Below are positions 2,635-53,563 of a DNA stretch of 54,789 nucleotides, piece after piece; position 1 is the stretch's first letter; each line of letters starts with the position of its first letter. The DNA lies in NCBI GenBank assembly GCA_949127975.1, contig CASBRB010000089.1:1-54789 (forward strand), in the 5' to 3' direction. The position numbers were made by a program, and so were the translations under genes. This stretch comes from Oscillatoriales cyanobacterium PMM_0019 (GTDB taxonomy: Bacteria; Cyanobacteriota; Cyanobacteriia; Cyanobacteriales; CASBRB01). The notes beneath the pieces are model-generated. The model worked only from the letters and a program-made list of their open reading frames with translations, ran no database searches and was not told where the DNA came from.

Positions 2635-3930
2635 TTATCCTCGAACCCACAAACAGCCTTCGCAGAGCGGAACTCTATGCTTCCGATTTTTCCACTTCAC
2701 GTTTCGATCGCGATTCTTGTCAAACTCGAAAGATTCAAACCCAGCTGATTGTGCTAGTATACCCATCCACTCAATCACTGGAACATACACGCCGTATGGA
2801 GCAGAATCGCCAATAACAAAACACACTGTTGAAGGATGTTGGCATACTCGACGCAGTGCTATCCAAACTCTAGCAATGTCCAAAAAGTAGCAGGCAATCA
2901 TCAGATGGTAATTTTTTTTTCCACCATGCAGAAGTCGCTCTTGGGATAGCCTCGAGCAGACTTCAATGATACCAGATTGAATCGGTCTAAGTTCAGGCGC
3001 AGCAATAACTTCATCAAAATTAACATTCTTTTTGGTTACGTGTTGCGAACATGAGCGAATTAAGTATTGCCGTACTGCACTTTGAAGATCTCCCCAACCT
3101 TTAATTTCTCCCAGAAAGCACATTTCCAGGCGTGTAGCATCTGCATAATCATAGTTGTTCGCGTAAGGTGGCGAGGTAATTACCCAGTTAGCAAAGTCAT
3201 CAGGAATACCAGCGCACGTCCGAGCATCAGACTGAATGAGTATAGCCTGAGAAGTTGGTATTTTCCTCATCAAGAGCATATCTGTGGCAATGGTTTCTGC
3301 CATCAGTTGAAAAGCTGGTATCGGCTCTAGGGTCGATTTTTTCTTTTGGCTAGGCAAAATATACTGCCACGGTGCAGTGCCGACGTGGGAAACCTGGCGG
3401 AGAATACCTACAAGTGTTAACCAGGCTAACTGAGATGGTGAGGAATTATCAGCAAGTCTCTCCCAAGCTTGTCGCAATCTATCCAGGCATTCAAGGGAAC
3501 TTGCACTGAAGCATTCACGAATCAGAGTCGGATAATCATCCACGCAGCCATGTAGGTTTTCGGCACATTTTGTGATTTTTCTTATATGCTCAAGATATGC
3601 ATCAGGATCGGTCCGATATAGTAGTTTAGCTCTCGCTATACGAACCATAAAGGGATGAGCCTCAACACCATAACATTCAACCCCCATCTTCTCGGCAGCA
3701 AGCAAAGTTGTACCTGCACCAGCAAAAGGATCGAGGACTGTGACGTTTCCCAACTCTTTGGCTTTAGCAATCACAGTTTCAACCCATTGAGCAGAGAAAC
3801 CTGCACTGTACCTAAACCAACGATGAACTGGCAACTTTATGTTATCAGCGAAGGTTGAGAAGGTAGGAGTGAGAGAGGGTGGCACGAGTGAGAGAACTTC
3901 CCCTAGTGGCAATTCTAGTTGTTTTGTCAT
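2635..3930 (-). CDS. Site-specific DNA amino-methyltransferase (N4-C or N6-A)
   Basis: The AdoMet motif I VLDPFAGAGTTLLAAEKMG lies near the N-terminus and the catalytic motif IV ITSPPYANNYDY about 190 aa later. SPPY is more typical of m4C enzymes. Confidence 0.85.
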   Translation of the reverse strand: MTKQLELPLGEVLSLVPPSLTPTFSTFADNIKLPVHRWFRYSAGFSAQWVETVIAKAKELGNVTVLDPFAGAGTTLLAAEKMGVECYGVEAHPFMVRIARAKLLYRTDPDAYLEHIRKITKCAENLHGCVDDYPTLIRECFSASSLECLDRLRQAWERLADNSSPSQLAWLTLVGILRQVSHVGTAPWQYILPSQKKKSTLEPIPAFQLMAETIATDMLLMRKIPTSQAILIQSDARTCAGIPDDFANWVITSPPYANNYDYADATRLEMCFLGEIKGWGDLQSAVRQYLIRSCSQHVTKKNVNFDEVIAAPELRPIQSGIIEVCSRLSQERLLHGGKKNYHLMIACYFLDIARVWIALRRVCQHPSTVCFVIGDSAPYGVYVPVIEWMGILAQSAGFESFEFDKNRDRNVKWKNRKHRVPLCEGCLWVRG

Positions 3931-3934
3931 GCTG

Positions 3935-4111
3935 TTAAGACATTTGATTAAACTCTTCTTGAATCATCTCAAAGACATAGACAAGTTCAGCTCTCGCTTC
4001 ATCTGCTGTTTGTCCCCAAGCGTGACAACCTGGAATCGCTGGAACATACGCCACAAAGGTACCATTGTCATCAGGAAGGATAACAACGGTGTAATCCTGT
4101 AGAAACTTCAT
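3935..4111 (-). CDS. HicB-like / UPF0150 small protein (58 aa)
   Basis: My own translation gives MKFLQDYTVVILPDDNGTFVAYVPAIPGCHAWGQTADEARAELVYVFEMIQEEFNQMS. This is the classic HicB N-terminal domain signature (YxAxxPxxPGCxxxGxTxEEA). It ends 4 nt before the MTase start codon. No hicA partner was seen. Confidence 0.6.
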   Translation of the reverse strand: MKFLQDYTVVILPDDNGTFVAYVPAIPGCHAWGQTADEARAELVYVFEMIQEEFNQMS

Positions 4112-4238: not shown

Positions 4239-6872
4239 CTATCGAGCTAAACCCGCAGGCATCCCCAAAATATCCTCAATCCTGGGCATATCTTCCAGCG
4301 GAATTACCCGCCCTTCATCCTCAAAACCAGTAATCCGATCGAAATTCAAATACCGATACAAATCATCAGCAAAAGGATGAATCTTGTGCGCCACAATATC
4401 CATATATTCCTGCACAGTAGGAATCCTTCCTAGCAGGGCACAAACCGCAGCTAATTCAGCAGAACCGAGATACACTCGCGCATCTTTCCCCATCCGGTTA
4501 TTAAAGTTGCGAGTAGAGGTAGAAAATACCGTTGTACCATCATTCACTCGCGCCTGATTACCCATACATAAACTGCAACCAGGCATTTCTGTACGGGCAC
4601 CAGCAGCACCAAAAATCCCATAAACACCCTCTTCCTTGAGTTGATATTCATCCATTCTGGTGGGTGGGCAAATCCACAAACGCACCTTGACAGGTGGTTC
4701 ACCTTCTAGTACCTTGGCAGTAGCGCGGTAGTGACCGATATTTGTCATGCAGGAACCGACGAACACTTCCTGCACGGGGTCATTTTCAACCTCAGACAAC
4801 AACTTGACGTTATCGGGATCGTTGGGCGCGGCAACTATCGGCTCTTTGATTTCATTCAAGTCAATCTCGATAATTTCCACATACTCCGCATCCGCATCGG
4901 CTGCCATCAGCACCGGATTGGCTAACCATTCCTCCATCTTGGCAACCCTGCGCATTATAGTCCGCCCATCCTGATAGCCCCGCGCTGCCATATTCTTTAA
5001 TAGTGCTACATTCGATCGCAGATACTCGGAAACTGTCTCCACACTCAGCTTAATCGTGCAACCCGCACAAGAACGCTCTGCTGTAGCATCGGTAAGTTCA
5101 AAAGCTTGCTCTACCTTTAAATCTGGCAAGCCTTCAATTTCCATAATCCGCCCGGAGAAGATATTCAACTTGTTTTTCTTCTCCACCGTCAGCAAACCTT
5201 TTTGCATTGCCACGTAGGGAATCGCATTCACTATATCCCGCAGGGTGACACCTGGTTGCAACTCACCTTTAAACCGCACTAACACCGATTCCGGCATATC
5301 CAGAGGCATCACGCCCAAGGCAGCGGCAAATGCTACCAACCCGGAACCAGCAGGGAAGGAAATCCCCAACGGGAAACGGGTATGGGAGTCGCCGCCAGTT
5401 CCTACTGTATCTGGTAGTAGCATCCGGTTCAGCCAAGAGTGTATTATACCATCGCCTGGGCGTAGGGCGACTCCAGCGCGAGAGGCAAAAAAGTCGGGCA
5501 AATCGTGGTGAGTTTTGATATCAACTGGCTTGGGATAAGCTGCTGTGTGGCAGAAGCTTTGCATCACCAAGTCAGCACTAAATCCCAGACAAGCGAGTTC
5601 TTTTAGTTCGTCGCGAGTCATCGGTCCTGTGGTATCCTGGGAACCAACACTGGTCATCATCGGTTCGCAAGAAGTCCCGGGGCGAACTCCGGGTAAACCG
5701 CAGGCTTTGCCTACCATTTTCTGAGCTAGGGTGTAACCTTTGCCAGTATCTACAGGGGGGCGAGGGCGGATAAAAATCGGGCTGGTTTCTAAGCCGATAG
5801 CATGACGGCTTTTATCGGTGAGTCCTCGCCCAATTAGTAATGGAATACGTCCACCAGCTCGCACTTCGTCGGTGATGGTGTCGGGTTGTAGTTTAAAGGT
5901 GGAAATTACTTCGCCAGCTTCGTTGGTGATTTCGCCTTTGTAGGGATGGATGGTAATCACCATTCCGGTTTCCATCTTGGTGACGTCGCACTGGATGGGT
6001 AATGCTCCGGAGTCTTCTGCGGTGTTGAAGAAAATCGGCGCGATCGCTCCTCCTAAAATATAACCTCCCGATCGCTTATTCGGCACGCAGGGAATATCTT
6101 CACCTATATGCCACAGCACCGAGTTAATCGCCGATTTCCGGGATGAACCCGTGCCAACCACATCCCCCACATAAGCGACGGGATGCCCTTTTTGCTTTAA
6201 CTGGGCAATAATTTCCAGTGCCCCAGGTATCCGGGATTCCAGCATTACCAATGCGTGTAAGGGAATATCTGGGCGGGTGGTAGCATGGGGAGCTGGTGAT
6301 AAATCGTCTGTATTCGTTTCTCCCGGCACTTTAAACACAGTGACGGTGATTTGTGGGGAGAGCGGGGGACGACTGGTAAACCATGTTGCCCCTGCCCAAG
6401 AATCGATTACCTGATGAGCATAGGAGTTAGTTTTGGACAACTCCAAGACATCGTTGAAAGCGTCGTAAACCAGGTTAATCTTACTTAAGGCAGTTGTAGC
6501 GGCGGTTGCTATCTGGTTATCGTTAGCCTGGAGTAGATCGATTAACGATTGTACGTTATATCCCCCGATCATCGTGCCTAGCAGTTCTATGGCAGTTATA
6601 GGGGAAATAAGGGGGCTGATTGTTTCGCCTTTGGCAATGCTGGTGAGAAACGAGGCTTTGACGTATGCTGCCGAGTCTACCCCTGGAGGGATGCGATCGC
6701 GCAACAGGTGTAATAAATTTTCCTCCTCACCTGCTGGAGGATTTTTTAGTAGTTCGCACAGTTGGGATGCCTGCTCGGCAGAAAGCGGCAGGGGTGGGAT
6801 GCCCAAAGTTGCGCGCGAGGCGACGTGTTGACGATAAGATTCCAGCATGGCAGCAATCTCCTCAGAGGACAT
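4239..6872 (-). CDS. acnB: Bifunctional aconitate hydratase 2 / 2-methylisocitrate dehydratase
   Basis: An 877-aa ORF that looks like AcnB along its full length, including the N-terminal HEAT-like region ([22 protein letters not shown]) and the Fe-S ligand regions ([17 protein letters not shown]). Confidence 0.95.
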
Positions 6873-29974: not shown

Positions 29975-30065
29975 CAGGACTTACGCACTGACTCTAAATA
30001 TAGCGGTCTGTAGGGGCAATCCCCCTGTGGTTGCCCCTATATATGCCCAGTCTGCGTAAGTCCTG
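29975..30065 (+). repeat. SDR copy
   Basis: caggacttacgcactgactctaaatatagcggtctgtaggggcaatccccctgtggttgcccctatatatgcccagtctgcgtaagtcctg. It begins 6 nt after the cobD stop. Confidence 0.85.
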
Positions 30066-31566: not shown

Positions 31567-33282
31567 ATGGAATTAAGGCAAGAAATATTTGATACTTATT
31601 GGAAATTTGCCGCTCGTCGCCAAGAGGTATTTTTTAACAGAATTAAAAACTTACCCCCGCCCTGGACAAGTGACCCGATTCTCAACGAGTATAAATTCTG
31701 CAATGCTTATCGAGCGAGCGATCGCGTTTCCCAATACCTAATAAAACATATCATCTACGACGCTAGACGCAGCCAGAATGAAGAAGAAGTTATTTTCAGA
31801 ATCTTACTATTTAAGATTTTTAACAAAATAGAGACTTGGGCATACTTAGAAAGTCGGCTAGGAGCGCCGATCGAACTGTCTAATTTTGATTTGGAGCTTT
31901 ATTCCAGCTTTTTGCAAGAGGCAATGGACAATGAGCAGGTAATTTATACCAGCGCCTATATGATGACTGGGGTAACAAAAGAATTTGGCTATAACAAGAA
32001 ACACCAGAATCATCTAGCTTTGATTAGCAAAATGGTATTAAAAGACCGGATATTAAATAAACTAAGCGCAGCCAAGAGTCTACAAGAAGTTTTTGTAATT
32101 CTGGTATCTTATCCCTTAATAGGCAATTTTCTAGCATATCAGTTAGCCACTGATATCAACTACAGTGAAGTAATAGACTTTGATGAAAATAGTTTTACTA
32201 TGGCGGGGCCTGGTGCGGAACGCGGTATCGGTAAATGTTTCCTAGATACAGGCGCTAAAAGTAACGCCGAAATTATATATTGGATGACGGAAAACCAAGA
32301 GCAAGAGTTTCAGCGTTTAGGGATAAATTTTCAATCCCTGTGGGGGCATCCACTTAAAGCTATAGACTGTCAAAATCTATTTTGTGAAGTAGATAAATAC
32401 TGCCGCGTGGCGGTGCCAGAATTAAAAAGTAATCGCAAGAGATTAAGATCGAGATTTAGTGCCACTACTCAACCAATTGAATATTTTTATCCGCCCAAAT
32501 GGAATATAAACGATAAAGTTAGGGAAACTTTAGCTGAACGATTGTCAACACAGGTACTCCCTCAACAGCAACCTATAGAGATACAAAGTAAAAAGAAAAT
32601 AGGGCATGAAACCATTCAGGAGTTGGAGTTGTTTGCTCAACTAACTGACTTTTCTTTTGCTCCACAAGTGGAAAGAAAAAATAAGGTTAAGAAAACTTCA
32701 ACGCCAAGATTGCCAATTGTGGATAAAACTCTTGAGGAGCCAGAAATAGAAATGAAAAAAGATGCCAAGACAGACTCAAATAAACTTTACCGCTATTGGC
32801 TCTTGCGGGAATGGAACCCTAATGCTCCACGAGTGGTTTTTGTGATGCTCAACCCAAGTGTCGCCGATGCCGATATAGACGATCCCACATTACGCAAATG
32901 TATTGGTTTTGCCAAGTCTTGGGGTTACGGTTCCCTAGAGTTGGTTAATTTGTTTGCCTACATTGCCACCGAACCTGATAACCTGCGTCAAGTAGAAGAT
33001 CCTGTAGGTTCAGATAATGACTCCTATCTTTTAAAGACGATAGAAAATGCCGAGAAAGTTATTCTCGCATGGGGCGATGAGGGCAGTAAGCGCCCCTGGC
33101 GCTATCGAAATCGATCCAAACATGTGCTAAAATTGATTGGTGAGAAATCATCTCTCTACTGCTTGGGGCTGACAGAGCATGGGCACCCACGCCACCCTCT
33201 GTATGTTGACTATAAAACAACCCCAGTTTCTTTTGAATTACCGCCCCTACAGCTAGAATTAAATTTTGGGATATTAGGTTAA
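31567..33282 (+). CDS. Fusion of a putative DNA base hypermodification protein (aGPT-pyrophosphorylase-like) N-domain with a C-terminal DUF1643 domain
   Basis: The N-domain IFDTYWKFAARRQEVFFNRIKNLPPPWTSDPILNEYKFCNAYRASDRVSQYLI is the family signature as I recall it. The C-domain is YRYWLLREW...VVFVMLNPSVADADIDDPTLRKCIGFAKSWGYGSLELVNLFAY...GHPRHPLY, the DUF1643 signature. I start it at the ATG at 31567, because the ORF-track start at 31390 overlaps the previous gene. Confidence 0.55.
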   Translation: MELRQEIFDTYWKFAARRQEVFFNRIKNLPPPWTSDPILNEYKFCNAYRASDRVSQYLIKHIIYDARRSQNEEEVIFRILLFKIFNKIETWAYLESRLGAPIELSNFDLELYSSFLQEAMDNEQVIYTSAYMMTGVTKEFGYNKKHQNHLALISKMVLKDRILNKLSAAKSLQEVFVILVSYPLIGNFLAYQLATDINYSEVIDFDENSFTMAGPGAERGIGKCFLDTGAKSNAEIIYWMTENQEQEFQRLGINFQSLWGHPLKAIDCQNLFCEVDKYCRVAVPELKSNRKRLRSRFSATTQPIEYFYPPKWNINDKVRETLAERLSTQVLPQQQPIEIQSKKKIGHETIQELELFAQLTDFSFAPQVERKNKVKKTSTPRLPIVDKTLEEPEIEMKKDAKTDSNKLYRYWLLREWNPNAPRVVFVMLNPSVADADIDDPTLRKCIGFAKSWGYGSLELVNLFAYIATEPDNLRQVEDPVGSDNDSYLLKTIENAEKVILAWGDEGSKRPWRYRNRSKHVLKLIGEKSSLYCLGLTEHGHPRHPLYVDYKTTPVSFELPPLQLELNFGILG

Positions 33283-33319: not shown

Positions 33320-34300
33320 ATGCAGCCGCGAGAGGAAATTTTTGACACATACTGGAAATTTGCCGCACAACGGCAAGAAATATTTTTTAACAGAATTAAA
33401 AATGAGCCTCAGCCTTGGAGTATCGATCCGATTATCGATAAATATAAGTTTTGTAACGCTTATCGAGCGAGCGATCGCGTTTCCCAGTATCTCATAAAAA
33501 ACGTCATTTATCAAGGTAGCCAGAATAAAGAGGAAGTTCTTTTTAGGATATTGCTATTTAAGATATTTAACAAAATAGAAACCTGGCAATATTTAGAAAG
33601 CAAGCTGGGAACAGTAGAACTAAAAAGCTTCAATTTTGATGAATACTCCGCTTTATTGGCATCTGCGACTGATTCTGGGCTGGCTATATACACCAGTGCA
33701 TATACCTCATGTCCCACTAGAGCCTTTGGCTATCCAAGAAAGCACCAGAATCATCTAGCGTTGATCCGCAAAATGGTACAATCAGATGAGCTAATTCAAA
33801 AGATAGATAACGCTACCAGTCTGAGAAAAGTTTTTCTAGCTCTGCTTGATTATCCCCTAATAGGCAAATTTATGGCTTATCAGCTAGCCACAGATATCAA
33901 CTATAGTGAGATTATCGAGTGTGAAGAAAATGATTTTACTGCGGCGGGACCTGGTGCTGAACGTGGCATTAGCAAATGTTTCACTAATACCAAAGGTAAA
34001 AGTGATGAGTATGTTATCAAGTGGATGGTAGATAAACAACAAGAAGAGTTTCACCGTTTAGGAATAAATTTTCAATCTCTTTGGGGACGTCCCTTAAAAG
34101 CTATAGACTGTCAAAATTTATTTTGTGAAGTAGATAAATACTGCCGCGTAGCGTTTCCCGGCTTGAAAAGTAATCGCACTAGAATCAAAGCGAGGTTTAA
34201 GGCAAATCTGCAACCGATCGAATATTTCTATCCTCCGAAATGGGGGATAAATGATAAAGTTAAAGAAACTTTAGCTCAAAATACTTACTCCCAAAATTAG
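33320..34300 (+). CDS. Putative DNA base hypermodification protein (aGPT-pyrophosphorylase-like), stand-alone paralog
   Basis: 326 aa, about 65% identical to residues 1-320 of the preceding gene. Stretches are near-identical at the DNA level, for example ttttgtgaagtagataaatactgccgcgt. Confidence 0.55.
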   Translation: MQPREEIFDTYWKFAAQRQEIFFNRIKNEPQPWSIDPIIDKYKFCNAYRASDRVSQYLIKNVIYQGSQNKEEVLFRILLFKIFNKIETWQYLESKLGTVELKSFNFDEYSALLASATDSGLAIYTSAYTSCPTRAFGYPRKHQNHLALIRKMVQSDELIQKIDNATSLRKVFLALLDYPLIGKFMAYQLATDINYSEIIECEENDFTAAGPGAERGISKCFTNTKGKSDEYVIKWMVDKQQEEFHRLGINFQSLWGRPLKAIDCQNLFCEVDKYCRVAFPGLKSNRTRIKARFKANLQPIEYFYPPKWGINDKVKETLAQNTYSQN

Positions 34301-34509: not shown

Positions 34510-34887
34510 TTAACCTAATGTCAGTACTCCTGCTGGTAAATCAACTACTAAACGATTTGTTTTTAGCCATTGGACACCTATAATAATTTCATGAATTTCC
34601 TCTCCTCCTAAAGCATAAATATTTACTTCTTGACCATCAAAGATTACTTTTCCTGCATATACATTGAAGTCAGTTGTGCCATTTGCTGTTATCATCGCGA
34701 AGGTATTCTCAGTAAATGACCAATCTAAGCTTTCTGCATCTTGCTTATCTATTGCTAACCATCCAGTAAATCCAGTATCTAAGAGTGCATTAACACAGAT
34801 AATATCTCCATCAGCACCAATTAAGCCAATCTCAAAATAAAGCTGTGCTTTATCATCAACCTCTCCTACTATCATATTCTTCCACAA
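34510..34887 (-). CDS. Retropepsin-like (clan AA) aspartic protease
   Basis: ALLDTGFTGWLAI carries the DTG active-site motif, and the size (~120 aa) fits. An alternative start at 34875 overlaps the upstream stop in an ATGA arrangement. Confidence 0.7.
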   Translation of the reverse strand: MWKNMIVGEVDDKAQLYFEIGLIGADGDIICVNALLDTGFTGWLAIDKQDAESLDWSFTENTFAMITANGTTDFNVYAGKVIFDGQEVNIYALGGEEIHEIIIGVQWLKTNRLVVDLPAGVLTLG

Positions 34888-35192
34888 GCTCCAGTTTCAT
34901 TAAGTCGTAAGATGAGCCTTCGTCTATCTGGATATTTTTCTTTAGCCTTTACGATCGCTATTTCTTGATTTTTATCGATGAAATATTCACCACTTACTGG
35001 CTCAATCGCAATAAACCAGTTATAATGTTCTTCAATTAGCTCTGGCTTAATTAGATCGAATATTACTCGACATCGCTTACTGAAATTTTCATCTTCTAAT
35101 CTCCGTCTTTCTTTTTCTTCAGGACTTATCTGACGTTCTGGAAATAGTCTACCTCGACGACGTGGCGTTTGATTATCCGATAAACGTGTCAT
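34872..35192 (-). CDS. Small protein, DUF5678-like partner of the aspartic protease
   Basis: HYNWFIAIEPVSGEYFIDKNQEIAIVKAKEKYPDRR resembles the DUF5678 pattern as I remember it. I chose the ATG at 35192, which has GAGGGAG upstream. Confidence 0.45.
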   Translation of the reverse strand: MTRLSDNQTPRRRGRLFPERQISPEEKERRRLEDENFSKRCRVIFDLIKPELIEEHYNWFIAIEPVSGEYFIDKNQEIAIVKAKEKYPDRRRLILRLNETGACGRI

Positions 35193-35251
35193 CCAATTGC
35201 TCCCTCTCAAAAATTTGCGACAGTTAAATTAATTATAGCACATAGAGTTCT

Positions 35252-35827
35252 TCAAGATAAATTAACCCCTGCTAGTTTCAAAATATATGCTGGCTGACAT
35301 TCCGCAGCAGAATTAAGTACAGTTATCTCGGTGTAGCGTTCAAACCATTCTTTCATTATAGCTTGCATTGACAAACACTGTTCCAGGGTTTCATATCTGC
35401 CCTCCGGTTGGTAACGAGTGCGATATTCAGCTTCGGTGAGTTGGATAAAAAAGTTGTATATTTTGATATTGTGGGTTTTGGCTAAGTAGTCTTCCCATTC
35501 TGCGATCGCTGCTATCATGTGGGGAAATGCATTGTTAGAATAGTAGTTAGCGTAAAATCCACATAAAAGAGGAGAGGTGTCTGATATAGCTAACTCGTAT
35601 CTATTGGTAAGTAAAGCTGTGATATAGTGGCTTTGATTTCCCAAAACTGCCAATTGATGGATAGCTGATATCGGAATTTTTCGCATTGCCCAGTCTTTGA
35701 TAAACTCAGTAATGAGATGAGATCTGATACCCAGGCGAGAAGTGAGAGCATAAATCTCTGCCGCCAGAGTAGATTTGCCCACACCGGGAACACCAACAAT
35801 ATTAATCAGTTTAAGCCTGAAGGTCAT
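35252..35827 (-). CDS. Small P-loop kinase/NTPase (AAA_28/NadR-like or nucleotide-kinase-like)
   Basis: The Walker A INIVGVPGVGKSTLAAE sits at the extreme N-terminus and the protein is 191 aa. It diverges from the TS-like gene across a 111-bp spacer. Confidence 0.6.
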   Translation of the reverse strand: MTFRLKLINIVGVPGVGKSTLAAEIYALTSRLGIRSHLITEFIKDWAMRKIPISAIHQLAVLGNQSHYITALLTNRYELAISDTSPLLCGFYANYYSNNAFPHMIAAIAEWEDYLAKTHNIKIYNFFIQLTEAEYRTRYQPEGRYETLEQCLSMQAIMKEWFERYTEITVLNSAAECQPAYILKLAGVNLS

Positions 35828-35938
35828 ATAATAAGTTAATAGGGGGAGTTGTCAGAAACAATGAATATTAGTATAATCCAAAATAACGACTTTTTGGCAG
35901 ATGGAAAATGTTCAATATCGAATCCTTAGATTTTTACC

Positions 35939-37465
35939 ATGACTGAAACCTTGTTTAGACCTATCCCAAGAAGAAACCTGCAATATGTTTATGCGCCCAA
36001 GTGTAAACCAAATCAATTAATTTGCGGGCAAGGACAAACAGCGCTCGTTACTGGCTGGACTTTAAAAGAGGCAGTATCTAAACACCTCCAGCCAGAAGAA
36101 TTTGCAGCGATCGGGCATCTCTATAGCCCAACCAGAGGAATTAGTTTTTTAATTAGGAATTTAATCGCTAACCCTCACGTTCGCTTTCTAGTGGCTTTAA
36201 TCGCTACTAAAGAAGATCGCAATGCTGGTGGGTGTAAATGTTTATTGGATTTTTTTCGCTATGGATTCAAAGAGGGAACAACGGATTCTGGGCGAAAATG
36301 CTGGATAATCCTGTCGGAAGTCCCAGGCTATATAGACTTGGAAATTCCAATAGACGTATTAGAAACCTTGAGGACTCATATCCTATGTGAAGAAACTACA
36401 TCAGTTGCTGAGGCAGTAAAGATAACAAAACTTTTTGCTCGAGGAGAAGCAATGCCACCTTGGGGGGAACCGCTTGAATTTGCCATCCCTGAAATAACTC
36501 CAACAATCTTACCAGGAACTAGATATGGGCATAGAATAGAAGGTAAAACGATCGCGGAGACTTGGGTAAAAATCATTCATCGCATTAAAACGACTGGCAC
36601 AATTAGACCGACTACCTATGATGGGCGGTGGCAAGAGCTAATTGACCTTATGGCGGTAGTCACGGATGAACCAGATGGTTTCTTTTTCCCACAACCTAAT
36701 TATTTGCCGATCGAGCGCTCATTCATCGAGCAGTATCTCGATCAGATCTTGGTAGATACTCCCTATAAAGAAGGGGTCAAGTATACTTACGCCCAGCGTT
36801 TGCGATCGTGGTTTGGGTGCGATCAAATAGAACAGGTTATTAAAAAATTGACTGGTGACATTGATTCAGCTAGTGCAGTTATGTCACTCTGGGATGCCAA
36901 AGACCATGATTGGGATGGGGGCAGCCCCTGTCTGAACCATATTTGGATCAGAATAGTCGATGGCGAAATGTCATTAACCGCCACTTTTCGCAGTAACGAT
37001 ATGTTCTCGGCTTGGCCAGCTAACGCAATGGGGCTCCGAGCTTTGCAGCAGCACATCCGGGACGAGATCTCTAATCGTTCCAATCGCGCCCTGCGGTTAG
37101 GACCGATGATTACCATAAGCCAGTCGGCGCATATTTATGATGATACATGGGAAAGTGCCGATCGGATTATCGAGCAGCAGTATTTTAAAAATTGCAAAAG
37201 TAAAGACTATAACGATCCTTGTGGAAATTTTTTAATTGAGGTTGACGGGGAAAATATTGTAGTTAAACAGACTACCTCTGGTAGCGGCGAGGTTGTAGCG
37301 TCTTATGCTGGGAAAGATCCACTGAAATTACTTAAGAAAATTTGTGATACTTCTCCAGCATTACAGGCGGAACACGCTGGCTACTTAGGCATTGAGCTAC
37401 AGACGGCTGTAGCTTGCATACAAAATGGGGGTACATATATCCAAGATAGAGGTTGTTGTTTTTAA
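35939..37465 (+). CDS. Thymidylate synthase-family protein with an MtrA-like N-domain and a DUF4346-like C-domain
   Basis: TS core: YAQRLRSW...DQIEQVIKKL...AVMSLWDAKDH...SPCLNHIWIRIVDGEMSLTATFRSNDMFSAWPANAMGL. The Cys nucleophile and the RSND motif are present. N-terminus: GISFLIRNLIANPHVRFLV. C-terminus: DPCGNFLIEVD...HAGYLGIELQTA...YIQD. Confidence 0.7.
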   Translation: MTETLFRPIPRRNLQYVYAPKCKPNQLICGQGQTALVTGWTLKEAVSKHLQPEEFAAIGHLYSPTRGISFLIRNLIANPHVRFLVALIATKEDRNAGGCKCLLDFFRYGFKEGTTDSGRKCWIILSEVPGYIDLEIPIDVLETLRTHILCEETTSVAEAVKITKLFARGEAMPPWGEPLEFAIPEITPTILPGTRYGHRIEGKTIAETWVKIIHRIKTTGTIRPTTYDGRWQELIDLMAVVTDEPDGFFFPQPNYLPIERSFIEQYLDQILVDTPYKEGVKYTYAQRLRSWFGCDQIEQVIKKLTGDIDSASAVMSLWDAKDHDWDGGSPCLNHIWIRIVDGEMSLTATFRSNDMFSAWPANAMGLRALQQHIRDEISNRSNRALRLGPMITISQSAHIYDDTWESADRIIEQQYFKNCKSKDYNDPCGNFLIEVDGENIVVKQTTSGSGEVVASYAGKDPLKLLKKICDTSPALQAEHAGYLGIELQTAVACIQNGGTYIQDRGCCF

Positions 37466-37532
37466 TAGTATTTGCTATTCTGAAACATACCGTTAACAGG
37501 GGAGTTGTCAGAAACACCTAATGTTAGTATAA

Positions 37533-37621
37533 CAGGACTTACGCACTGCCTCCATATATAGGGTTCGTAGGGCAATCCCCCTGCGGTTGCCTCTATATGT
37601 GCCCAGCGTGCGTAAGTCCTG
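37533..37621 (+). repeat. SDR copy between the two TS-like genes
   Basis: caggacttacgcactgcctccatatatagggttcgtagggcaatccccctgcggttgcctctatatgtgcccagcgtgcgtaagtcctg. Confidence 0.85.
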
Positions 37622-37632
37622 TATAATATAAA

Positions 37633-39339
37633 ATGACTAGCTTTAGGCAGGGTAAAATGTTTAAAAATGTTACTTATGCGTTTAGAGAAGGGCTAAGAAA
37701 AATCTTGCAAGAAGGAGAGGTAATTGCAGTGCGATCGCATGAAACCAAGGAAGTGCGATCACATCTAATTAAAATTTCCTCTCCCCTAGAGCGGGTTTAT
37801 CTTATTCCTCACCGAAATAACAACATTTTCGCTCAAATTGCCGAAACGCTGTGGATGATTGCCGGACGCAGTGACATGGCTTTTTTATCACATTACCTGC
37901 CCCGTGCCGTTGATTTTTCCGATGATGGCAAAGTGTGGAGAGGTGCTTATGGTAGTAGGCTGAGAAACTGGCAAGGTATAGATCAAATTGAAGAAGTAGC
38001 GCGGCTTCTCCGTCAAGATCCTAACAGCCGTCGTGCTGTAATGGTGATTTTCGATCCGGCACAAGATTATCTAGACAGTAAAGACATCCCTTGCAACAAT
38101 TGGCTACATTTTCTGATTCGCGATGGGCGCTTGCACCTGAATGTATCTATTCGCTCTAACGATATCTGGTGGGGATTTTCAGGGATTAATACTTTTGAAT
38201 GGAGCGTGCTGCATGAGATGATGGCTTATTGGACGCGATCTAAAGTAGGAGAGTATAGTCACTTTGCTAGTTCTTTCCACTTATACGAACGCCATTACCA
38301 GCCTGCTGAAAAAATAATTGCTACCTCTCAGGATAAAACCTTATATGACTTCGGATTTACTAACCCGCCATTTAGCATCCCATTTGAAGAGTTTGACGAA
38401 GCAATGGTGCGATGGTTTGCCATAGAAGATAAAATGCGTCAGGGTGAGACAAACCTGAGGCAGGAAATCAATAATTTTGATGATAGCTTTCTCAGAAACA
38501 GCCTAGAGATGTTGTATATCTATAATCGCTATCTGCTGGGAGCTGAGGGGGAAGAGATTGCCCAGCTTATAGAAGAGTTGCCGCCTAATGATTTTAAGAT
38601 TGGGGCGATCGAGTATTTTTCTCGTAAGTTAAAAAATAGAGAGTTGGTAAAACTCCAGGATAAAGAGAGAGAATATTTCCAGTATTTCTGGGGAGCGGAT
38701 GTAGCTGATAATTTATCTGTTACAGTACCCGGTAAATCCGTCGTCACCTTTTCATTTATTTTTGCTAAATTAAGCATACTCCACTATAAGAAAAGCCTCG
38801 TCTATAAAGACAGTTGGAAGAAGCACGGCGAGTTGCTGGGAGTTTTTGGCAATATTGCACGAAAGTACGATCGGATAGAAGTAATCATGAAGGATAAAGT
38901 TAAGCCAACTTCTGATGAATCTCTACTGGATACTGTAGCAGATATGGCTGTTTATTTAACTAAGTATATGACCTATCTAGCAGAACATTACCAAACTATC
39001 TTTAAGGAGTTTATCGGGCAATATCCTTCAGTGGAGCCAATTGAACATTACTGGGATAATCAAGGATTTGAGTCTGTAGTGAAAATCCTGATTAGGAGAT
39101 ATGACAATTCTGGGGAGTGGGAGCAGATTTCTAACTACGGCGATTGCTTTGCTGCCCTGAGCAAGAATTATAAAGTACTTGAAGATATCCTGATTAATGG
39201 TGACTGGCGCAGCAGCGATCCGCGAAAATGTTCATTTGCCGCTGATTTAGCTATTAGTGCAATGCATTTTCTGGTGCTGGCGTCACAAAAAGAACCGGAG
39301 AAGTTCCAGAAACTCTTAAGGTATATAGAAATGCTTTAG
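37633..39339 (+). CDS. Thymidylate synthase-family protein fused to a C-terminal all-alpha MazG/DUF1599-like domain
   Basis: TS core: ETLWMIAGRSD...YGSRLRNWQGIDQIEEVARLLRQDPNSRRAVMVIFDPAQD...IPCNNWLHFLIRDGRLHLNVSIRSNDIWWGFSGINTFEW. C-terminus: YKDSWKKHGELLGVFGNIARKYDRIEVI...ESLLDTVADMAVYLTKY. Confidence 0.7.
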   Translation: MTSFRQGKMFKNVTYAFREGLRKILQEGEVIAVRSHETKEVRSHLIKISSPLERVYLIPHRNNNIFAQIAETLWMIAGRSDMAFLSHYLPRAVDFSDDGKVWRGAYGSRLRNWQGIDQIEEVARLLRQDPNSRRAVMVIFDPAQDYLDSKDIPCNNWLHFLIRDGRLHLNVSIRSNDIWWGFSGINTFEWSVLHEMMAYWTRSKVGEYSHFASSFHLYERHYQPAEKIIATSQDKTLYDFGFTNPPFSIPFEEFDEAMVRWFAIEDKMRQGETNLRQEINNFDDSFLRNSLEMLYIYNRYLLGAEGEEIAQLIEELPPNDFKIGAIEYFSRKLKNRELVKLQDKEREYFQYFWGADVADNLSVTVPGKSVVTFSFIFAKLSILHYKKSLVYKDSWKKHGELLGVFGNIARKYDRIEVIMKDKVKPTSDESLLDTVADMAVYLTKYMTYLAEHYQTIFKEFIGQYPSVEPIEHYWDNQGFESVVKILIRRYDNSGEWEQISNYGDCFAALSKNYKVLEDILINGDWRSSDPRKCSFAADLAISAMHFLVLASQKEPEKFQKLLRYIEML

Positions 39340-40877: not shown

Positions 40878-41936
40878 CTAAATTTTTGGCAAAATAACTT
40901 TTTCCGCTTGATCTTGATACTTGCCCTTTCGTTGCTCGTAAGTAGTCTGACAAGATTCTCCTTCTAAGAAAAGCAATTGACAAACTCCCTCCGAAGCGTA
41001 TATTCTAGCATCAGCAGGAGAAGAATTAGAAAATTCTAGCGTTAAGTGTCCCCGCCATCCCGCTTCGGCAGGAGTTATGTTAGCAATAATGCCGCAATTG
41101 TGGACAAAAACTCCGGCAGCGATCGCAAAATTTCCCGCTTCAGGAACCGTTAAGCAATAAACATCATGAATGCCAGGAATATCCTGGACTGACGCAACTT
41201 TATGGTTTTTGACCCCTGTTAGCGGCTGATATACTGTTTCATAACCCCGTGTATTTTCCCGATATAGCGGCATCAAAGAATCATTTGGTCTTAAATCATC
41301 CGCAGGTACCATGCTACCATGCCTTTTCATAAAAAGATGGTCTGGGGTACAAAAAATCGATTCCTCATTATCCAAAGTCACTTTCACCAAGGAATCTCGA
41401 CCAATATAACGAGGGTTTGACAAAAGTGTTATAATTACCAGTCCATTTTTATCTATGCTGTATCCCCAAAAATTCTCCCCTTGCTGGGCCCGCTGGGCCA
41501 TCTCCTCTAAGGTGGGAGAACTGCCATCAACTAAGGCTACACGAGTATCCCCTCGAAAGCAGCGAGCATAAGTAGATTTACCCAGACAAATTACAGTAAT
41601 ATTCTCCGGTATATTTAGATGCTCTAGCGCCACCCCAAGCCCGTAGGATCTTCCCGGCAAGATAAAAAATTCTCCATCGCGATCGCGCTGAAGTTCTCCA
41701 ACCTCCAAATTTTCTGGATTAAACCGCTTGGGATTAACAATTGTACCTGGGATATGTCTAAAAATCCTAAATTCTTTTGGTGAAAGTCTGATATCGTACC
41801 CGTAACTCGAGCATCCAAATGACAACACGGGTATGATATTTGCCTCAAATTCCATACTCCTAACAAGTTTCGGATCGAATGGCTGAATCATTCCTGATTC
41901 AGCCATCTTAGCAATCCAAATATCATTTTTTATCAT
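40878..41936 (-). CDS. dcd: dCTP deaminase interrupted by a mini-intein
   Basis: The exteins are MIKNDIWI...SYGYDIRL...GKSTYAR | CGIIANITPAEAGWRGHLTLEFSNSS. These align with E. coli Dcd GRSSLARLGLMVH...DPGWSGCIVLEFYN. The intein lies between them. Confidence 0.9.
   Translation of the reverse strand: MIKNDIWIAKMAESGMIQPFDPKLVRSMEFEANIIPVLSFGCSSYGYDIRLSPKEFRIFRHIPGTIVNPKRFNPENLEVGELQRDRDGEFFILPGRSYGLGVALEHLNIPENITVICLGKSTYARCFRGDTRVALVDGSSPTLEEMAQRAQQGENFWGYSIDKNGLVIITLLSNPRYIGRDSLVKVTLDNEESIFCTPDHLFMKRHGSMVPADDLRPNDSLMPLYRENTRGYETVYQPLTGVKNHKVASVQDIPGIHDVYCLTVPEAGNFAIAAGVFVHNCGIIANITPAEAGWRGHLTLEFSNSSPADARIYASEGVCQLLFLEGESCQTTYEQRKGKYQDQAEKVILPKI
41097..41561 (-). other. Mini-intein (155 aa, no homing-endonuclease domain) in dcd
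   Basis: Begins CFRGDTRVALVDG (block A, Cys1). Block B is IFCTPDHLF (TxxH). Ends GVFVHN, followed by the +1 Cys (CGII). Confidence 0.85.
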
Positions 41937-41944
41937 GTTCTATT

Positions 41945-42481
41945 CTAAGTACGGTGACTCCGACGAATCTGGGTAATTTGATCCGCTACTTCCAAAATTG
42001 CTGGCGGCATTTCTGGCCCTGTCAAAATAATATCTACATGATGGGGGCGTTCTTCTAGAAAAGCTAGCACTTCCTTTTCTGGAATCAAACCAAAATTAAT
42101 CGCTAAACTGAGTTCATCCAAAACCACTAGGGAATATCTACCCTCAAAAACCACCTTTTGAGTATGTTGCCACAACTGTAGCAAAGATTCAGCCTCAGCT
42201 TGGTCGAGATGGGGAGTATCAATACAGCGGGGCAAGTCGCAGCGTATCCAATCTAAGTGCTGCCCTAGTTTAACGGGATGCTCGCGCCCTTGGTTGATTC
42301 CTCCTTTAAGGAACTGTACCACTAGGACTGGTGTCCCCTGTGCTGCAATTCTCAGCGCTTGCGCCATCACGCTAGTAAAAAAGCTGCGGCAAGAGGAGGT
42401 GAAAACCTGTACTAGCCCTTCAACCTTGTAGGGTAGGGGTGAAGAAGAATTGACAGTGGGGGTTTCTAGCTGGGCAATCAT
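41945..42481 (-). CDS. CobA/CobO/BtuR-family protein with a degenerate P-loop
   Basis: VVQFLKGG...YSLVVLDELSLAINFGLI...VDIILTGPEMPP matches the corrinoid adenosyltransferase family. The GxGKGKTT position reads SSCRSFFT. It ends 8 nt before the dcd start. Confidence 0.7.
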   Translation of the reverse strand: MIAQLETPTVNSSSPLPYKVEGLVQVFTSSCRSFFTSVMAQALRIAAQGTPVLVVQFLKGGINQGREHPVKLGQHLDWIRCDLPRCIDTPHLDQAEAESLLQLWQHTQKVVFEGRYSLVVLDELSLAINFGLIPEKEVLAFLEERPHHVDIILTGPEMPPAILEVADQITQIRRSHRT

Positions 42482-53464: not shown

Positions 53465-53563
53465 CAGGACTTACGCAGACTGGGCATATATAGGGGCAAC
53501 CCACCCCTAGGGGGTGGATTGCCCCTACGAACCGCTATATGTAGAGACAGTGCGTAAGTCCTG
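53465..53563 (-). repeat. SDR copy in reverse orientation with an extra internal palindrome
   Basis: caggacttacgcagactgggcatatataggggcaacccacccctagggggtggattgcccctacgaaccgctatatgtagagacagtgcgtaagtcctg. Confidence 0.85.

Follow-up and report, generated by a model that had tools for sequence, protein, structure and literature searches.

Why should a cyanobacterial chromosome carry, side by side, two intact genes of the thymidylate synthase (TS) fold? The question is raised by contig CASBRB010000089.1 of Oscillatoriales cyanobacterium PMM_0019 (GenBank assembly GCA_949127975.1), whose 54,789 nucleotides are referred to, as a whole, as the window. In this window, open reading frame (ORF) A (35939-37465, plus strand, 508 aa) is followed by ORF B (37633-39339, plus strand, 568 aa, or 560 aa if translation starts at 37657, where the gene caller places it). 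A first-pass annotation, made from the letters alone, had placed both ORFs correctly and quoted motifs which are all present; it had proposed that such a pair does more than housekeeping synthesis of thymidylate (dTMP), for example as a hydroxymethylase beside a methylase or as two enzymes using different pyrimidine substrates. We consider it fairly probable that both proteins supply thymidylate, and that the window captures the displacement of one TS by another.

ORF A is predicted to be the ordinary housekeeping TS of those cyanobacteria that have no ThyX. Indeed, an A ortholog (57-69% identity) was found in 16 of 41 same-order genomes and ThyX in 22, with both enzymes in none and neither in three (Fisher p = 9e-9). 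The same exclusion holds for 251 genomes sampled across the phylum (A type in 44, ThyX in 201; p = 8e-40), where a single genome (G233) has both. More than 100 cyanobacterial clusters of the same architecture (approx. 497 aa, 65-71% identical to A) bear the name thymidylate synthase in their source, and orthologs are so labelled in Nostoc, Calothrix, Microcoleus, Rippkaea and others. Two genomes (G024 and G009) have A in a synteny like that of the window, namely pilMNOQ-aminotransferase-lpdA-...-A-...-CobO. In the window genome, which is 96% complete, ThyX was not found, nor was any TS-family gene beyond A and B. A dihydrofolate reductase (DHFR) of FolA type, taken as a marker of ThyA chemistry, proved uninformative, as it is missing from A-only (several genomes), B-only and ThyX genomes alike.

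The architecture of A departs from that of a plain ThyA at both ends. Its N-terminal domain (aa 1-196; 35939-36526) matches the MtrA model of NCBIfam at aa 49-113 (E = 1e-10), and its AlphaFold2 (AF2) model, built from an alignment with 21 orthologs (mean predicted local distance difference test score, pLDDT, 89), retrieves MtrA as all seven of its best Foldseek matches in the PDB (5l8x, 5laa, 9qts, 9qtr; E from 1e-6 to 1e-5, TM score 0.5-0.69), the eighth match reaching only E = 0.013. The histidine of the NPHVR motif in this domain, a possible counterpart of the corrinoid-binding His of MtrA, is kept in at least 90% of the orthologs and is replaced by Phe in some. The TS core (aa 200-417; 36536-37189) is recognized by Pfam Thymidylat_synt (PF00303) at aa 282-417 (E = 3e-12; 46.5 bits versus a cut-off of 24.3), and is fitted better by the archaeal-type TS model TIGR03283 of NCBIfam (aa 200-405, E = 3.5e-38). 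The C-terminal PterinBD-DUF4346 domain (aa 426-503; 37214-37465 with the stop codon) covers positions 2-86 of the 86 in profile PF14251 (E = 2e-19; 70.5 bits versus a cut-off of 29.6). Both accessory domains had been suspected in the first-pass annotation, which named an MtrA-like N-terminus and a DUF4346-like C-terminus.

Within the core, the motifs SPCLNH and RSNDMFSAWP-AN show that the nucleophilic Cys, Arg166-Ser167-x-Asp169 and the uracil-reading Asn177 are kept. The equivalents of ThyA R21, R126 and R127, which are three of the four arginines that hold the dUMP (deoxyuridine monophosphate) phosphate, are all missing from A (PTTYDG, DSASAV) and from every A ortholog examined. A literature search on DUF4346, or on cyanobacterial thymidylate synthase with MtrA, found nothing. 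Although many cyanobacteria have the A type, it is apparently uncharacterised.

ORF B belongs to another branch of the fold. As had been noticed from the letters, the two proteins are barely alignable outside the core, where they share approximately 29% identity over roughly 150-170 aa. The TS core of B and the helical extension which follows it (together aa 1-362; 37633-38718) match PF00303 at aa 17-234 (E = 6e-26; 91.6 bits versus the cut-off of 24.3), and the phage family phrog_5131 covers both core and extension (aa 11-338, E = 6e-79). The motifs DIPCNN and RSNDIWWGFSGIN are intact, with one additional residue ahead of the Asn, and the equivalents of R21, R126' and R127' are retained (AVR, SRRAV). 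Read by sequence, the dUMP site of B is thus complete: Cys, Glu, four Arg and an Asn of uracil type. Among solved structures, the best match is MilA, a cytidine monophosphate (CMP) hydroxymethylase (E = 2e-28), and the ThyA enzymes score E = 1e-16 or worse. B differs from MilA in having Asn, which reads uracil, instead of Asp, and Arg-Arg and Arg-Ser instead of Lys-Arg and Arg-Ala; the Lys and Ala positions of MilA reportedly set the preference for ribo- versus deoxynucleotides. A cytosine or ribonucleotide substrate for B was rejected on these residues (Asn with RR/RS). The idea that the two enzymes use different pyrimidines is not supported either, since both ORFs keep the uracil-type Asn and B also has the deoxy-type RR/RS.

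Shorter B-like TS proteins, 52-58% identical to the TS domain of B and with the Lys/Ala residues of MilA, were also encountered in Rhizobium rhizogenes (L032) and Priestia megaterium (L033). Their genes are translationally coupled to genes of the nucleoside deoxyribosyltransferase family (Nuc_deoxyrib_tr) inside clusters for non-ribosomal peptide synthetases, glycosyltransferases or ATP-grasp enzymes, and they probably represent pairs of a uracil-nucleotide hydroxymethylase and a glycosidase from what look like nucleoside natural-product pathways.

The remaining 206 aa of B (aa 363-568; 38719-39339) form an all-alpha domain, modelled by AF2 as ten helices (pLDDT 94), in which the invariant residues of the B family cluster. 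DUF1599 (PF07659, ‘Nucleotide modification associated domain 1’, hereafter Nmad1) matches 11 of the 27 family members (best E = 0.0011), the window copy being unmatched; a Pfam scan of the window domain and its linker gave no match. Against PDB sequences, the profile of the domain found designed helical proteins only, and Foldseek of the model against the PDB returned nothing below E = 0.1. Viral fold matches were weak (E 0.05-0.3), and comprised Nmad1, NTP-PPase-like and CP-51 proteins. The nucleotide-modification-associated half of what had been suggested for this domain agrees with the family matches, and the domain would be a divergent Nmad1; the MazG-like half, with no solved-structure match, is weakly supported. 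Literature searches on DUF1599, and on the DUF1643 domain met below, turned up only genome-annotation papers.

What B does is best approached through the genomes in which it occurs. The gene is rare: one of 40 same-order relatives has it, and across the phylum sample it was met in none of the other 250 genomes. A pattern search through species representatives recovered 17 B loci, nearly all cyanobacterial. In Oscillatoria princeps (G276), G277 (with a contig of 7.63 Mb in its assembly) and G287, all three without ThyX, the sole PF00303 match is an intact B. Where B lies directly beside another TS gene, which is A in three genomes and ThyX in nine, all 12 copies are full-length and stop-free, and all have lost the equivalents of Glu58, Arg166 and Arg127, most of them the Cys as well; every Nmad1 motif is kept. 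These dead copies belong to Laspinema, where ThyX at the same locus adjoins the dead B, to Oscillatoria and Phormidium (with Laspinema, L038-L046 and L049), to Aphanothece (L037) and to one more locus (L048), and at two further loci only remnants of B are left. Apart from the Aphanothece copy, which was inactivated recently, the dead copies share 59-60% identity with the window in Nmad1 versus 40-50% in the TS domain; in intact copies, the TS domain is conserved as much as Nmad1 or more. The dead form of B can thus be described as a conserved pseudo-enzyme with a retained Nmad1 domain.

As B is the sole TS gene of other genomes and its catalytic site decays beside A or ThyX, it most likely supplies thymidylate too. 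Indeed, an enzyme dedicated to hydroxymethylation is not expected as the only TS gene of a free-living bacterium, nor is the decay of its catalytic site on the arrival of another TS. B is a TS-fold enzyme of the clade of phage dUMP hydroxymethylases and of the defence system DS-4, fused to Nmad1, which in the cell would convert dUMP to dTMP. Two smaller points agree with this: O. princeps, which has B only, possesses a well-conserved canonical thymidylate kinase (Tmk), and in a contig of Ktedonobacterales, B is flanked by genes for dCMP deaminase, DHFR, dcd and dUTPase.

The region from lpdA to dcd/CobO is best explained as the thymidylate-synthesis locus of this cyanobacterial lineage, at which ThyX, type A and type B, enzymes that are only distantly related or not related at all, would replace one another. 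Of the 20 related loci examined, 13 have CobO (73-82% identity) downstream of their B, A or ThyX gene, and in most of the rest the sequence ends within approximately 3.5 kb past B. The relative closest to the window B (79% identity) belongs to a locus that lacks A and has the order lpdA-DUF1643-HMUDK_hel-Uma2-B-dcd-CobO-MFS-DUF421. In the window, A sits exactly between B and a gene for a 191-aa kinase (35252-35827, minus strand), and in G277 (L036) B and a kinase copy 68% identical to that of the window are divergent neighbours. A would have been inserted between the two, presumably as the newcomer, and the window, the only genome found with A and B both intact, would show a rare intermediate. 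Nor is the pair a fixed feature of housekeeping, a possibility which the first-pass annotation had set against its own proposal. The HMUDK_hel, DUF1643 and P-loop kinase genes appear to be older occupants of the locus.

A fragment of the A type is also seen in another genome (G031; L027, contig C134, approx. 3923-4021). It comprises 33 residues, 58% identical to aa 15-47 of A, and stands approximately 200 bp from ThyX; it is the scar of an in-place replacement.

The genes to the left of the pair include two members of the HMUDK_hel family. The first is fused to DUF1643 (31567-33282, plus strand; called product of 571 aa; Pfam HMUDK_hel E = 1e-109, DUF1643 E = 2e-48), and the second is a stand-alone paralog (33320-34300, plus strand; Pfam E = 3e-108), whose identity is 68% with the fused copy and 71% with the copies that immediately precede an intact B in O. 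princeps and MFD01689. HMUDK_hel is common in Nostocales (66-70% identity), among which Dolichospermum compactum (L060) has a HMUDK_hel-DUF1643-MazG_C (predicted kinase) trio and no TS gene. The 191-aa P-loop protein is a candidate dTMP/dNMP kinase (AAA_28, E = 2e-5; phrog_2107 ‘thymidylate kinase’, E = 1e-7). Canonical Tmk (PF02223) was found in the window genome neither by hidden Markov model search nor by tblastn with three cyanobacterial Tmk sequences, and was likewise not found in G277, G278 and G281; the 191-aa kinase may be a candidate non-orthologous substitute for it. Searches of PDB sequences with HMUDK_hel, DUF1643 and the kinase gave no matches.

Several observations weigh against B as a supplier of thymidylate. 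First, its closest characterised relatives are the phage proteins SPO1 gp29 and SP10 gp188, both annotated as dUMP hydroxymethylases (tblastn with B aa 12-329/449: 31-32% identity, E = 2e-44 and 4e-49, respectively), together with MilA, and ThyA ranks lower; the next phage relatives after gp29 and gp188 are TS-Nmad1 fusions encoded by Brevibacterium phage LuckyBarnes and by Glutamicibacter phage Montesquieu. We take the DNA of SPO1 and SP10 to contain 5-hydroxymethyldeoxyuridine (5hmdU) or a derivative. Secondly, where ThyA has the folate-shielding motif IWDEW, B has FSDDG, in common with gp29, gp188 and MilA, and a PCN(N/L) motif is likewise common to B, gp29 and gp188. Thirdly, the order HMUDK_hel-TS-Nmad1 is that of 5hmdU hypermodification cassettes: SP10 has HMUDK (gp186), TS (gp188) and Nmad1 (gp189) in the same order as window-type loci, and LuckyBarnes and Montesquieu have HMUDK, TS and Nmad1 genes clustered beside glycosyltransferase or aGPT-Pplase genes.

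Fourthly, a homologous set of TS, HMUDK_hel and kinase genes makes up part of DS-4, an accessory system (TS, dNMP kinase, HMUDK_hel, TIR and Nmad2) validated as an anti-phage defence in Escherichia coli by DeWeirdt, Mahoney and Laub with DefensePredictor (PMC13092281), whose mechanism is not given there. The DS-4 TS is 33% identical to B (BLASTP E = 4e-34), and the DS-4 HMUDK_hel is 26-31% identical to the two window copies (E = 3e-33 and 5e-28), the fused one being at 31%. Fifthly, all intact B genes have HMUDK_hel just upstream, and none of the dead ones has it within 10 kb. Its loss along with the activity of B hints that HMUDK_hel needs a product specific to B, and this co-loss is not explained by simple redundancy. 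Finally, all three B-only genomes are metagenome-assembled, and the dead B copies fall largely into one clade, so that independent inactivations number approximately three and not 14.

Most of these observations are shared by the hypothesis that comes closest to the first-pass proposal of a hydroxymethylase beside a methylase. It makes B a dUMP hydroxymethylase and A the sole thymidylate synthase, with 5-hydroxymethyl-dUMP being raised to the triphosphate by the 191-aa kinase and the cellular nucleoside diphosphate kinase (NDK), and with HMUDK_hel and DUF1643 acting on 5hmdU in DNA. The module would then be a chromosomal thymidine-hypermodification cassette of phage type, used either against phages, in the manner of DS-4, or for partial self-modification of the genome. 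The identity of the nearest characterised homologs, the FSDDG and PCN(N/L) motifs, the order of the cassette and the protection that DS-4 gave E. coli against phage all favour it, as do the rarity of B and the intactness of A and the whole module in the window.

Comparative genomics points the other way. A is a plain housekeeping enzyme by its distribution, three genomes have B as their sole TS-family gene, and the catalytic site of B has decayed in just those genomes that have another TS beside it, as expected for redundancy and not for a separate function. In addition, no TIR or Nmad2 effector accompanies the module and no PADLOC model matches it, and HMUDK_hel and DUF1643 are very common in Nostocales without a B-type gene; occurring in Dolichospermum without a TS gene, the two have a role of their own. 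The sequence of B and the cassette around it thus support the first-pass proposal and the distribution of the genes does not; taken together, we regard a hydroxymethylase B as the main alternative, possible but rather unlikely.

It could also be asked whether the window B is simply a relic at the earliest stage of decay, A having taken over and the insertion of A and of a repeat having severed B from its former promoter. The kinase gene of L036 lies directly beside B in divergent orientation, whereas in the window A lies between them and B is preceded only by a repeat able to form a hairpin; besides, all other B copies found beside A are dead. However, the window B has no stops or frameshifts, and all its catalytic and Nmad1 motifs match, exactly or almost exactly, those of the copies that serve as sole TS. 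Moreover, dead-TS copies are kept elsewhere as full ORFs, which implies a selected role for the protein. A functionless B in the window is accordingly very improbable.

We hold as equally improbable the boldest proposal, in which B is a dUMP hydroxymethylase and the B-only cyanobacteria (O. princeps RMCB-10, MFD01689.bin.1.35) have their chromosomal thymine wholly or largely replaced by 5-hydroxymethyluracil or a derivative, through the HMUDK_hel/DUF1643/kinase/Nmad1 cassette; the DNA of the window organism, which has the cassette as well as A, would in that case be mixed or conditionally modified, and we know of no free-living bacterium with a hydroxymethyluracil-based genome.

The divergent spacer between the kinase and A (35828-35938) is promoter-like, with its two best sigma-70-like matches at 35849-35877 on the plus strand (11/12) and at 35855-35828 on the minus strand (10/12), both being matches to the consensus only. 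Between A and B lies a dispersed palindromic repeat of 92 bp (37531-37622), resembling a small dispersed repeat (SDR) or a miniature inverted-repeat transposable element (MITE). It corresponds to the SDR element which had been noticed exactly between the ORFs. The palindrome gives 552 BLAST high-scoring segment pairs across 262 contigs of the genome, its core 12-mer AGGACTTACGCA occurs 551 times genome-wide, and the predicted hairpin has a folding energy of -55 kcal/mol (z = -8.4). Copies in intergenic spacers of the window are located at 1564-1641, 17449, 29976-30053, 37534-37609, 42650 and 53466-53551.

On the right flank, a dCTP deaminase gene and a CobO-like gene (40878-42481, minus strand; Pfam DCD, Intein_splicing and CobA_CobO_BtuR) form the conserved border of the TS locus. 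The deaminase gene (40878-41936) is split by an intein, and an intein-like match exists on contig C184 as well. Between the HMUDK_hel genes and the kinase (34510-35210), two small overlapping ORFs on the minus strand encode an aspartyl-protease-like product of 125 aa and a product of 112 aa, neither of which has a counterpart in related loci. A third HMUDK_hel copy (64% identity) is located outside the window, on the 6.5-kb contig C48 of the same genome (G000; 5235-6185), whose other ORFs, one of 728 aa, have no detected domains; this contig may represent a mobile element or a small plasmid.

The window as a whole is a segment of cyanobacterial chromosome, with pilMNOQ genes and a fatty-acid desaturase gene in its flanks, in a genome which has 2,471 HIP1 sites. 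A recent island insertion was considered, given the low guanine-plus-cytosine content at 32-36 kb, and rejected, as the same gene order is found in O. princeps, MFD01689 and a P0002 contig. A prophage was rejected too: there are no tRNA genes, and the flanks consist of pil genes, lpdA, desaturase, dcd and CobO.

Thymidylate synthesis, with ThyA and ThyX, is the classic textbook example of non-orthologous gene displacement. To this the locus adds a third player, with the process visible in mid-course. In addition, an enzyme that groups with phage dUMP hydroxymethylases and the DS-4 TS, both by sequence and by gene neighbourhood, is the only TS-like gene of some genomes; either genuine dTMP synthases exist in this clade, or the DNA of some cyanobacteria is based on hydroxymethyluracil. 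The former would change both the annotation of ‘TS’ genes in phages and defence systems and the interpretation of DS-4, and under the latter, with B a hydroxymethylase, the species having B alone would possess thymine-free or thymine-poor DNA, which would be a major finding.

How do A and B compare with the systems already known? Both resemble the ThyA-type TS (EC 2.1.1.45, including TIGR03283) in their PF00303 match, nucleophilic Cys, Arg-Ser-x-Asp and uracil-reading Asn. A differs from ThyA by its additional MtrA fold and DUF4346 domain and by the absence of R21/R126/R127 equivalents, and B by the absence of IWDEW, a helical extension of approximately 100 aa and the Nmad1 domain. B, unlike A, is closer to SPO1 gp29 and SP10 gp188 than to ThyA, and has in common with them the FSDDG motif, the Asn and the extension after the core; in SP10, the gene following gp188 is homologous to the C-terminal domain of B, and a HMUDK gene lies upstream. 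Unlike these phage enzymes, B is chromosomal, fused to Nmad1, the sole TS of three genomes, and degenerate beside another TS.

DS-4 and the window both have a small P-loop kinase, with no BLASTP similarity between the two kinases. DS-4 has a separate Nmad2, whereas the window has Nmad1 fused to the TS and DUF1643 in addition; for the TIR and Nmad2 proteins, BLASTP gave no match in the window and Pfam no TIR or Nmad2 among the neighbours. Nor did PADLOC detect any known defence model in the window, whose module sits in a conserved nucleotide-metabolism locus and not in a defence island. The MilA/MilB pairs of nucleoside antibiotic clusters, in which a CMP hydroxymethylase is associated with an N-glycosidase, provide in MilA the best solved-structure match of B, but MilA has the Asp that goes with cytosine, whereas B, with Arg/Ser and Asn, reads as an enzyme of dUMP. 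Finally, the locus resembles the displacement of ThyA and ThyX in that the enzymes are mutually exclusive across genomes. It departs from that model in involving three enzyme types at one conserved locus, and in that the displaced gene persists as a pseudo-enzyme with a conserved accessory domain.

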